From positions 15,854 through 79,853 of the forward strand of contig JAZLBO010000022.1 in assembly GCA_045613765.1 (NCBI GenBank): a stretch of DNA of 64,000 nucleotides, given 5' to 3'. The first letter of the stretch is position 1. Each line of letters starts with the position of its first letter. Below, in pieces: positions 12,600-41,204 of the stretch. Made by a program: the position numbers and the translations under genes. Under the pieces are notes generated by a model that saw only the letters and a program-made list of their open reading frames with translations, was not told the DNA's origin and did not search any database. This DNA comes from Clostridia bacterium. GTDB taxonomy: Bacteria > Bacillota > Clostridia > Christensenellales > CAG-917.

Positions 12600-12829
12600 A
12601 GTATAACAAATCTCCTCTTAAAATGCAAAAGTTTAGAGAAATAATAGCGTGTTTCAGTCCTTGCAGCCATGCGTTTTTTTGATTTTCAAAACAACTTGTT
12701 ATGAAATACTATTTTTTCGTCCAAATAATTGATTAATTAAATGCTATCACGAGAATTTTGCATATTCAAGACTTTGTGCCAATTATTTTTTTTAACGCGT
12801 TCGGGAAAATCTGCATTGAGAAAACCACC

Positions 12830-12970
12830 TATTAGGGATTTGTAGCGAACTTGTGAGCGTAATAGCGAAGCGAGTGTGCTTGCATACGTGAGTGGAGCGC
12901 CAGCCTGGCGTGGCAGGGTTCAGTGCCATACAACTATGGCACAGGTGCATAGCACCAAAATCCCTGCGAA
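12830..12970 (-). other. GC-rich structured intergenic element, copy A (related to 40417..40830)
   Basis: Minus strand reads GGCTGGCG, 21 nt, CACTCGCT, t, CGCTATTACGCTCAC, colinear with copy B. Contains an 8-bp hairpin GTGCCATA-caac-TATGGCAC (12923-12942) enclosed by GCAGGG/CCCTGC. Confidence 0.45.
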
Positions 12971-12975
12971 ACGAC

Positions 12976-13010
12976 AAAAAAAGGACATCGAGATTGATGT
13001 CCTTTTATTT
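12976..13010. terminator. bidirectional terminator downstream of tRNA-Ser
   Basis: AAGGACATC-gagatt-GATGTCCTT flanked by an A-run and a T-run. Confidence 0.8.
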
Positions 13011-13102
13011 TGGCGGAGAAGCAGGGATTTGAACCCTGGCTACGATTCTCTCGTACTACTCCCTTAGCAGGGGAGCCCCTTCGGCCTCTTGGGTACTTCT
13101 CC
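13011..13102 (-). tRNA. tRNA-Ser (anticodon GCU), CCA encoded
   Basis: Manual fold of the 92-nt sequence. Acceptor GGAGAAG/CTTCTCC. Anticodon stem CTCCC/GGGAG with loop CT-GCT-AA. Long variable arm (TACGA/TCGTA). T-arm CAGGG-TTCAAAT-CCCTG. Ends in G-CCA. Confidence 0.9.
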
Positions 13103-39195: not shown

Positions 39196-39873
39196 ATGAA
39201 TTTGGTGTTTTCAGTGCTACTTCTTGCCTCGGGGATATTTATGCTCATATCAAACCCCACAGAGATTTTCCCCACTATGATTGATGGCGTGGGCAGTGCC
39301 ATAAATCTGCTTATAAAACTGATTGCCATATATTCTATATGGCTTTCTCTCCTGAAAATCATGGAAAAGACGGGGCTTGACGCCAAATTATCACGTATTC
39401 TGCACCCCGTCATCAAAAGATTGTTCAAGGGGGAGAAAGATGAAACGTACAAGTGGATTTCTGTCAACCTTGCGTCAAATATGTTGGGTATGGGTGGTGC
39501 AAGCACACCTGCAGGCATAAAAGCAATGGAACTTATGGAAAAAGATGGCAGAGCAACTGGCAATATGGACTTGCTTGTTGTGATAAATGCCACCTCAATC
39601 CAACTTATCCCTGCAACAGTCATTGCACTTAGAGCAACGGCAGGAAGTGACAACCCATCATCAATTATACTGCCCACACTCATATCTTCAACCATTGCAA
39701 CAGTGGCAGGCGTTGTGCTTTGTAAGGTCTTTGAAAAGAAAGGCGAAAACAATCCACAAACACTGTCAAAAGGCAGTGCAAGGTTGAAAAGGACAAAAAT
39801 AAAACAACTTCAAAAGACAATGAAGTTGCACCACAAATCAAGTGAAAAACTGAAAAAGGATAGAAGACAATGA
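39196..39873 (+). CDS. spmA: spore maturation protein A (nucleoside-recognition-domain membrane protein)
   Basis: ATG 39196 (MNLVFSVLLLASG...). LIKLIAIYSIWLSLLKIMEKTGL...NMLGMGGASTPAGIKAM. Basic C-terminal tail. Confidence 0.85.
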   Translation: MNLVFSVLLLASGIFMLISNPTEIFPTMIDGVGSAINLLIKLIAIYSIWLSLLKIMEKTGLDAKLSRILHPVIKRLFKGEKDETYKWISVNLASNMLGMGGASTPAGIKAMELMEKDGRATGNMDLLVVINATSIQLIPATVIALRATAGSDNPSSIILPTLISSTIATVAGVVLCKVFEKKGENNPQTLSKGSARLKRTKIKQLQKTMKLHHKSSEKLKKDRRQ

Positions 39874-40376
39874 GCGTGTACGTCCTGCCAATATTCATCA
39901 TTGCATTGTCCCTTTTTGCAGTGTATAAAAAAGTCAAAATTTACGATTGTTTCCTTGATGGCACAAAGGAGGCACTATCACTTGTAAAGACAGTTTTTCC
40001 GTATATCGCAACCATATACATTGTCATAATGTTGTTCAAAACAAGTGGCTTGTCCACCCACATGACCAACGCTTTGGCAACCCCTCTGGGCTATCTTGGA
40101 ATACCCAAAGAAATCACGGAAATTATGTTGCTCGTGCCAATCAGTGGCAACGGCACAATCGCCCTTCTTGAAGAAGTGATCGCCACCCACGGTGCAGACA
40201 GTTATATAGCAAGATGCGCAGCAGTTGTGGCAGGTGGCAGTGAAACAATATTCTACATATCGGCAGTTTATCTGTCAAAATGTCAAGTTAAACGCCTAAA
40301 TCGTGCAATTCCCATTTCTCTGTTCTGTACACTTATAGGTGTCGTGCTCGCTTGCGCCCTGTGTAGAATAATGTAG
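39870..40376 (+). CDS. spmB: spore maturation protein B
   Basis: 168 aa. ATGA overlap with spmA. FLDGTKEALSLVKTVFPYIATIYIVIMLFKTSGL... Confidence 0.85.
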   Translation: MSVYVLPIFIIALSLFAVYKKVKIYDCFLDGTKEALSLVKTVFPYIATIYIVIMLFKTSGLSTHMTNALATPLGYLGIPKEITEIMLLVPISGNGTIALLEEVIATHGADSYIARCAAVVAGGSETIFYISAVYLSKCQVKRLNRAIPISLFCTLIGVVLACALCRIM

Positions 40377-40416
40377 GAATACTCTAAAAAATCATATATA
40401 TTCTTTATCAAAGTGA

Positions 40417-40830
40417 GTGCGAACATATCAATTTAGGATTCCCCCCTTCCTCATGTGTTTCCCCCCATTTGCCTATGGCAAAGCCCTACGGGCAGGGGCA
40501 CTCGACGCGATTGACTTCGTAGCAATCGCTATTCCGTCACTTTGTTCCTTACGGCACGCGCACATTAAGTGTCGTTCTCTCATTATGTCACTTGCCACTT
40601 GGGTGGGAAAAACAGGATCCCCAAGTGGCTGGCGTACTTTCATCTGGTGCTTGGCACTCGCTATGTAGGAGTGTGTGGCGACGCGATTATAAATCGCTAT
40701 TCCGTCGCACACTCCTTACCCGTTCCGTCTTTGAATAAGTGAGTGCTTGTATAAGTACCCACGCTCATGCCGTAAACCCTTTTATTTCGGGTGCACGTGG
40801 CTACGCTCCCTTTTTAGAACATAAAAACGC
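40417..40830 (+). other. GC-rich structured intergenic element, copy B (candidate ncRNA/repeat, internally duplicated)
   Basis: No credible ORF. Stems CCACTTGGG/CCCAAGTGG (40594-40629) and GGAGTGTG..GCGACG/CGTCGC-ACACTCC (40668-40716). Block GGCACTCG...ACGCGATT..AATCGCTATTCCGTC occurs twice (40497-40540 and 40653-40710). Confidence 0.5.
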
Positions 40831-40889
40831 AATATTTGGATGAAGAACAAGGAAAGAAAAATTCTATAATACAGTGCGTTTCATAAAAA

Positions 40890-41003
40890 GGCATCACAAA
40901 GATGTATAATGCGAAAAGCCCCCTATATACCGACCGACGTGTACTTGGCGTACATGAGGGTGGGATATAGGGGGCTTGACAAAATTAGACGCTTTGTGAT
41001 GAC
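40890..41003 (-). terminator. long compound hairpin downstream of 41007..41204 (probable terminator/3' structure)
   Basis: Inner 12-bp stem AGCCCCCTATAT/ATATAGGGGGCT and outer CATCACAAAG/CTTTGTGATG. TTTT follows on the minus strand. Confidence 0.5.
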
Positions 41004-41006
41004 TTT

Positions 41007-41204
41007 TTATTCGATGGTGGCATTCAACTCTGCCAACAACTCATCAATGTCAACACCGTGAACAACGGCGATGTCACCGATTGTTTCTTGATGTGCAAGT
41101 GCACAACCGAGGCAATGGAGTCCTGCGTTTTGGAGAACTTTTGCCACTTTTTCAGGGTTACCGATGTTGAGTGCATCGAAGATAAGAGTGTCTTTGGTGA
41201 TCAT
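41007..41204 (-). CDS. DUF1858 / hybrid-cluster-protein-associated redox disulfide domain protein
   Basis: 65 aa. MITKDTLIFDAL...GLHCLGCALAHQETIGDIAVVHGVDIDELLAELN. RBS GGAGG. Confidence 0.8.
   Translation of the reverse strand: MITKDTLIFDALNIGNPEKVAKVLQNAGLHCLGCALAHQETIGDIAVVHGVDIDELLAELNATIE

Follow-up and report, generated by a model that had tools for sequence, protein, structure and literature searches.

A structured, modular interspersed repeat behind spmB in a gut Clostridia genome

Introduction

In the DNA analysed here, a stretch of 64,000 nucleotides from a Clostridia bacterium (hereafter the window), an spmB-like gene is followed by a gap of 630 bp that ends at a convergent DUF1858 gene (Table 1). 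What occupies this gap? An earlier note, made from the letters of the window, described a GC-rich, ORF-free and highly structured element with an internal duplication, and proposed that it was either a novel non-coding RNA or a member of a repeat family. We followed up this proposal by comparing the locus with the rest of its genome, with the genomes of relatives, and with known RNAs, repeats and mobile elements. All compared genomes are metagenome assemblies.

Results

The element behind spmB is one copy of a dispersed family

Alignments of 15 full-length copies from the same genome and of 49 copies from the genus define a unit that runs from AAAGTGAGTGCGAACAT to ...GTGAGTGCTTGTATAAGTACCCCACGAACTTGCCGTA. 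The copy behind spmB starts with AAAGTGAGTGCGAACAT and finishes with CATGCCGTAA. The source genome (G000) is a draft metagenome-assembled genome of 1.32 Mb in 24 contigs, estimated at 97% completeness; the 15 full-length copies and approximately four partial ones were recovered from it by BLASTN and nhmmer at 70–96% identity, and several copies lie at contig ends. Since this genome contains ~19 copies and its relatives contain hundreds, the repeat-family half of the earlier proposal holds: the locus belongs to an undescribed family, and it is a dispersed repeat rather than a one-off RNA gene.

No known RNA was recognised. Rfam 15 gave no match anywhere in the window at the gathering threshold, and at E ≤ 10 the region 40300–41100 gave only chance hairpin matches (miRNA, snoRNA), which fall in a neighbouring hairpin and not in the element. 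The classes without a match include ROOL, GOLLD, OLE, raiA, HEARO, 6S, tmRNA, RNase P, SRP, riboswitches, group I and II introns, self-cleaving ribozymes and IS605-associated motifs. Similarly, 20-mers from the core of the element did not occur in a literature text search.

The earlier note had also placed a shorter, colinear relative of the element, inverted, at 12.8 kb. That region is not a copy of the element. The Smith-Waterman score was 20, compared to a shuffle mean of 19.4 ± 1.9, and two family HMMs (--max, E ≤ 100) found no match there. The nearest true copy (G000:C22:8924-9216) lies outside the window. Part of the region 12780–12975 of the window belongs to another small repeat, which also matches C16, two places on C18, and C3; the region adjoins a tRNA gene on the minus strand (~13010–13100).

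The element does have a higher GC content than its surroundings. The difference is modest (0.49–0.51 in the element vs. 0.40–0.46 around it), so the description "much more GC-rich" was an overstatement. Mechanically called ORFs of 83 aa (plus strand) and 79 aa (minus strand) overlap the element, as they would if the family consisted of decayed protein-coding genes or pseudogenes. However, indels of 46, 37 and 1 nt and swaps of whole blocks distinguish the copies, which share no conserved frame, and conservation tracks base pairing rather than codons. The element is thus ORF-free in effect, as first described, and a pseudogene family is hardly conceivable.

Between the element and the DUF1858 gene, the gap is occupied by other repeat families: a module at ~40821–40862, followed by a module with a "rod" hairpin at ~40882–40985 (the rod itself spans 59 nt, 40918–40976). 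In a sister strain, L268, the gap is built of these modules too, but they are ordered differently and the rod hairpin is another variant; the genes on either side are 94–98.5% identical.

Table 1. Features of the spmB–DUF1858 gap and its borders (positions in the window).
Feature	Position	Strand	Basis or remark
spmB-like gene	39870..40376	+	ORF list; stop codon 33 nt upstream of repeat copy
Repeat copy, long form, 366 nt	40410..40775	+	nhmmer and HMM boundaries 40411–40775; own-genome and genus alignments
Direct repeat AAGTGAGTGC, 10 nt, 5′ copy	40411..40420	+	Second copy at 40737–40746
Nearly invariant 21-nt core CCCTTCCTCATGTGTTTCCCC	40444..40464	+	Invariant columns, 44 diverse copies
Nested mini-hairpin module, copy 1: TCGACGCGATTGAC..GTAGCAATCGCTATTCCGTC..CCTTAC	40502..40552	+	Stem 40507–40513 / 40523–40529
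Central hairpin P3: CCACTTGGG / CCCAAGTGG, A-rich loop	40595..40628	+	At least 9 stem sequences, pairing kept in all
Nested mini-hairpin module, copy 2, within long stem 40668–40715	40663..40722	+	Carried by 3 of 15 own-genome copies
3′ tail AAGTGAGTGCTTGTATAAGTACCCACGCTCATGCCGTAA	40737..40775	+	Anchor scan, all copies
Other repeat families, remainder of gap	40821..40985	.	Separate BLAST match sets within genome
DUF1858 gene, convergent, far boundary of gap	41007..41204	-	Pfam PF08984, E = 4e-12

The element combines a multi-helix fold with nested hairpin modules

The predicted fold of the copy behind spmB has an energy of −137.6 kcal/mol on the plus strand, compared to −101.8 ± 5.3 kcal/mol for dinucleotide shuffles (z = −6.7); the minus strand gives z = −3.3. 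"Highly structured" is therefore an apt description, and all of the stems listed in the earlier note were located to within 1–2 bases. The stem TTTGCC/GGCAAA was found at 40468–40482 by direct reading, and GCGATTG/CAATCGC forms the stem of the first nested module. The arms of the central hairpin P3 lie at 40595–40603 and 40620–40628. The long stem, in which GGAGTGTG..GCGACG pairs with CGTCGC..ACACTCC, encloses GCGATT-ata-AATCGC. In addition, the 3′ half of the core (GTGT..CCCC) pairs with GGGG..ACAC and closes a 5′ multi-stem domain; in a set of 24 copies, every pair of this helix (helix 1) is intact. The 10-nt direct repeats AAGTGAGTGC flank the body of the element, and the tail that follows exists in two alternative blocks, which segregate among the copies.

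The common form of the family is ~290 nt long. The copy behind spmB measures 366 nt because a small hairpin module is nested at two places within it, and these modules are what had been noticed as an internal duplication, GGCACTCG occurring at 40497 and again at 40653 and being followed each time by GACGCGATT...ATCGCTATTCCGTC. The first is a 46-nt hairpin module located after the 5′ domain, which is present in 7 of the 15 full-length copies of this genome and absent from the other 8. The second takes the place of the usual small 3′ hairpin CTCGCCACCCTGTGGCTCG; three copies, including the one behind spmB, have this replacement. In copies from relatives, the mini-hairpin is also found at other internal positions, which gives at least three such positions overall. 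Since it occurs at several internal positions and also stands alone, both in this genome and in another genus, we conclude that the mini-hairpin is a small element in its own right that nests within the large element.

Some further observations concern the mini-hairpin itself (GACGCGATTG..CAATCGCTATTCCGTC, 40–50 nt). Nested copies always lie directly upstream of GGCAC. Other sites are G000:C11:80798-80853, C6:16544-16598, C16:46815-46870 and C5:23928-23983, as well as G001:C3:9125-9302 (two tandem copies) and G020:C6:66508-66538. Exact 31-nt matches occur in a genus without the large element.

The core is nearly invariant and the helices change in step

The 21-mer is invariant in 44 diverse copies, as are a few other short motifs, and the stems change in step. 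The core CCCTTCCTCAYGTGTTTCCCC stays the same between species with protein identities of just 65–88%. P3 is found in nine or more sequence versions, every one of which can pair, with four to five covarying pairs in each of two alignments. Two subgroups of copies were analysed separately because MAFFT misaligns helices between the subgroups in a mixed alignment (RNAalifold). A consensus built on 24 divergent copies has 39 pairs in 8 helices. In this set, 96.9% of cells are paired, whereas shuffled partners give 91.9% and slid partners 52.7% or less; changes on both sides of a pair occur in 51 cells (15.5 expected); and the covariation score is 0.179 vs. 0.090 in shuffles, with 0 of 500 shuffles reaching it, although these shuffle statistics overstate significance because copies within and between genomes are non-independent. 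All alignments are sequence-based. The genus-level alignment agrees for the central hairpin. Several helices thus covary.

An invariant core and compensatory changes in the helices are signs that a folded molecule is under selection, and neither is needed for purely selfish spread. These features favour an alternative in which the family consists of multicopy structured RNA genes or elements, each transcribed, with a functional fold and a functional C-rich core that might bind a protein or pair with a purine-rich sequence such as ribosome-binding sites. The distribution of conservation along the element fits this alternative as well: its most conserved part is internal and its termini are less conserved, whereas classical mobile elements conserve their ends.

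The two strands were compared by the types of 1x1 mismatches, by a noGU consensus, by alifold on both strands, and by z-scores. The plus strand is slightly favoured by per-copy z-scores, which average −2.6 on the plus strand and −1.8 on the minus strand and are more negative on the plus strand in 19 of 28 copies (the copy behind spmB leans the same way). In addition, one long-range 4-bp helix uses U·G wobbles on the plus strand, and one of its pairs runs C–G / U·G / U–A. However, the consensus energies are as good or better on the minus strand (−45.5 vs. −42.3 and −26.2 vs. −24.0 kcal/mol), and single mismatches inside Watson-Crick stems (23 G·T vs. 17 A·C) carry no strand signal. The helices are ordinary palindromes that fold on either strand, with at most a weak lean to the plus strand, and the folded molecule could be RNA or single-stranded DNA. 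The copies also lack a conserved promoter or terminator, which weighs against individual transcription, and a promoter scan was no richer than in shuffles. A minus-strand promoter candidate (TGnCATAAT) was rejected, as its last T is not conserved.

The family is restricted to two genera

BLASTN detected the element in each of the 11 other species of the genus, and it was nearly absent from the rest of a set of 40 relatives. We also scanned 108 genomes of the GTDB family with the pattern CCCTTCCTCAYGTGTTTCCCC, allowing up to 2 mismatches. The core was detected in 39 of these genomes, which belong to 2 of 16 genera: 12 of 12 genomes in the genus of the window and 27 of 52 in a second genus. No hits were obtained in the 14 other genera or with a reversed-pattern control. 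Carrier genomes have between 1 and 44 copies. The 25 species of the second genus that have no copy speak against a family of functional RNA genes, and an essential role is disfavoured by high-quality genomes in which no copy occurs.

In a scan of all prokaryotes (one genome per species), the element was found in metagenome-assembled genomes of gut Clostridia only, such as CAG:238, CAG:475, UMGS1042 and UBA6880. Some carrier bins are labelled Bacteroidaceae, Bacteroides, Phascolarctobacterium or Anaeroplasmataceae (CAZJZV, CAZXUW, CAZCKS, CAZLVK, CAZRHE, CAVBBF, CAVKUX). These look like mislabelled relatives, because their proteins are 65–88% identical to those of the Clostridia genome studied here. 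Viral contigs, phage records and plasmids gave no match to the element. A second core variant, CCTTTCCTCAYGTGTTTTCCC, recurs many times beside the main core in several genomes (for example G056, G058 and G049), suggesting a sister subfamily.

Copies lie between convergent genes and often just past terminators

Gene context was determined for 60 copies within their 8-kb surroundings. On the 3′ side of the element, the neighbouring gene is convergent in 46 of 53 cases; its 5′ counterpart points the same way as the element in 35 of 50. The gap itself is convergent for 25 of 43 copies and divergent for a single one of the 43. In 7 of the 15 full-length copies of this genome, an intrinsic terminator of the upstream gene lies 8–45 nt before the element. 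Therefore, the element usually sits outside the transcription unit of its neighbour, and if RNA were made from the many copies that follow terminators, each would have to be its own transcription unit, as expected of RNA genes.

The copy behind spmB is an exception to this pattern. No terminator-like site was detected between 39800 and 41400, so there is none between the spmB stop codon and the element, which follows at a short distance (Table 1). Orthologues of spmB are present in 11 of the 12 genomes of the genus. No neighbouring gene recurs around the 60 copies; the neighbours are ordinary housekeeping genes.

Copies come and go at orthologous sites and exchange blocks

Occupancy of individual sites varies among the 12 species of the genus. 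The sites behind a PSP1 gene and behind GAPDH are filled in the genome of the window only. The site behind PFOR is filled in this genome, G011 and G002, and not in G007 or six others. Behind spmB, a copy in the same orientation is found in this genome, G007 and G002; G006 and a metagenome contig whose SpmB is 82% identical carry a copy in the opposite orientation; and the site is empty in a relative with 78% identity and in all more distant ones. Inverted or missing copies at orthologous sites would not be expected of a conserved RNA gene. Neither a base-exact empty site (the intergenic DNA of sister species does not align) nor a strain of the same species lacking the copy behind spmB was found.

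The sister-strain locus (L268; ENA ERZ27297728, contig k141_860107) provides a closer comparison. Its flanks match the window at 94% identity over spmB plus the initial 255 nt of the element, and at 98.5% over the DUF1858 gene. The L268 element is present at the same base, lacks the second module and has the usual small hairpin instead. Where it departs from the window copy, it does so in short patches, and every patch corresponds to an alternative block seen in other copies of the window's genome. Among the 15 full-length copies of this genome, six two-state blocks can be scored, and 13 of the 15 block pairs show all four combinations. This requires repeated exchange between copies.

A dedicated mobiliser is not apparent

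Multicopy structured elements of ~300 nt have turned out before to be parts of larger mobile systems; HEARO is the omega RNA of IscB. The element could similarly be the non-coding part of a gene-carrying mobile element (IS200/IS605, IscB/TnpB, IS110-type or group II intron), acting as a guide or scaffold RNA or as a recombination-site end, with the autonomous copies missing from the draft assemblies. In the genus, copies start with A|GTGCG just past terminators, which resembles the placement and 5′ GUGYG of class C group II introns; the divergent copies, half of the family, do not keep this start. However, a unit of 290 nt falls short of the length of a group II intron, and neither RF00029 nor group-II-D1D4 gave a match at E ≤ 10, nor did HEARO or the IS605-associated motifs at that threshold. 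The absence of a recurrent neighbour among the 60 copies also disfavours a gene-carrying element.

Neither terminal inverted repeats nor target-site duplications were found. The first 45 nt of each of the 15 copies, set against the reverse complement of its last 45 nt, gave terminal inverted repeat scores of 4–10 (shuffles ~6 ± 1.2). The longest flank match, a proxy for target-site duplication, was 0–4 nt in the same copies and inconsistent. No TnpB zinc-ribbon (PF07282), RAYT/Y1 transposase (PF01797) or IS110 DEDD transposase (PF01548) domain was detected in the 97%-complete genome, which is weak evidence, since draft metagenome-assembled genomes often lose multicopy transposase genes. The recombinases present are one tyrosine and one large serine recombinase.

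The genome encodes a single reverse transcriptase (420 aa, RVT_1 only), located 20 kb from the nearest copy. Of the 12 genomes of the genus, 2 encode homologues, and none of the 52 genomes of the second carrier genus does, so this protein does not co-occur with the element and is not its mobiliser. The reverse transcriptase looks like recently acquired DNA, as only one other species of the genus has it. Its locus (L265, G000:C11:19967-23593) has a perfect 60-nt direct repeat after the gene (L265:2661-2720 and 2824-2883). Taken together, these data make it quite unlikely that the element is the non-coding part of a gene-carrying element of a known type.

Another conceivable reading is that the element is a mobile structured RNA (guide/scaffold or ribozyme-bearing) whose partner protein or nuclease is encoded elsewhere or has been lost from the drafts. 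The C-rich 21-mer and the covarying helices would then be read by the partner, and the element would be an orphan, as HEARO was before IscB. We consider this unlikely.

"Solo" sites were observed on C5 (reverse strand, L190 region), C19 and C1 of the source genome. In these, the usual 5′ flank, TTGCTCAAA, is followed by GTGAGTGC fused to the 3′ tail TTGTATAAGTACCCCACGAACTTGCCGTA, and the 250-nt body is missing. Such sites could have arisen by deletion between the two 10-nt direct repeats, or they could be targets that were not filled.

Discussion

On balance, we favour the interpretation that the stretch behind spmB is a copy of a clade-restricted, non-coding, interspersed mosaic repeat of the BOX/ERIC kind, a term that denotes a functional class and not a homology family; given the lineage, homology would not be expected. 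The traits of this class are present: dispersed non-coding copies in close relatives, optional internal modules, and presence or absence at orthologous sites. The element is probably parasitic or weakly functional. Transcribed RNA genes are a less probable explanation, given the invariant core and compensatory changes on the one hand, and the patchy range, either-strand folding and site turnover on the other.

The ~290-nt hairpin unit accumulates in "safe" DNA, between convergent genes and just past terminators; its copies come and go at orthologous sites and swap blocks by recombination or gene conversion. Spread would be that of parasitic or near-neutral DNA, driven perhaps by host recombination or by a trans-acting function that the draft genomes do not reveal. 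If the cell is affected, this would happen indirectly: the hairpins could act on the read-through transcripts of neighbouring genes by altering stability or termination. Such an effect would matter most at spmB, which has no terminator of its own.

These repeats break the assemblies of abundant uncultured Clostridia of human and animal guts, and they could be mistaken for RNA genes; a model of the family would clean up annotation. The family also presents a rare combination of features, in that a core and covariation like those of a functional RNA are found together with the patchy range, turnover and block shuffling of a parasite, and with no visible mover. If a partner or transcript exists, the family would represent a new RNA–protein or mobile-element system. 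If not, it would be a clean case of non-autonomous repeats whose persistence and recombination can be studied in very small genomes (1.3–1.7 Mb).

How does the element compare with known systems? Like MITEs, it has no coding capacity, is dispersed and falls in their size range, but MITEs have the terminal inverted repeats and target-site duplications that it lacks (inverted repeat scores equal those of shuffles). HEARO (IscB omega RNA, RF02033) is likewise a multicopy structured element of ~300 nt whose function was not obvious at first. In contrast, our element has no Rfam match to it at any threshold, and no IscB/TnpB-like gene is found in the genome or beside the copies. REP, BIME and REPIN sequences share with the element an extragenic location, hairpin formation, clustering in mosaics behind genes, and folding on both strands. 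However, REP units are 20–40 nt long and REPINs are inverted doublets, whereas the element is ~290 nt long with at least 8 helices, and the RAYT (Y1) gene that accompanies those repeats has no Y1 counterpart in this genome.

ERIC (IRU) sequences of enterobacteria are conserved across genera, and their copy number varies widely between related species. Longer ERIC variants arise from internal insertions at fixed sites, the mechanism of ERIC mobility is unknown, and it has been argued that their conservation operates on the folded transcript. The element resembles ERIC in its cross-genus conservation, its uneven copy number and its longer variants created by internal insertion. It differs in having several independent helices, whereas ERIC is a single imperfect palindrome of ~127 bp.

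The repeats BOX, RUP and SPRITE of Streptococcus pneumoniae offer a further comparison (Croucher et al. 2011, PMC3049150). They are restricted to close relatives, modular, judged to be parasitic, and affect co-transcribed genes through their structure (PMC3049150). Like them, the element is non-coding, intergenic, hairpin-rich and modular, with a variable number of modules. It shares with BOX a range of tens to hundreds of copies in a few close species, slow turnover at orthologous sites, the lack of a transposase of its own, and a presumed action on co-transcribed genes via structure. There is no sequence relationship between the two, which occur in different phylum-level lineages. Furthermore, BOX is a chain of the form A-B(n)-C, whereas the element has a fixed multi-helix core of ~290 nt with an invariant 21-mer, and its variable module is a separate mini-element that nests at several positions.
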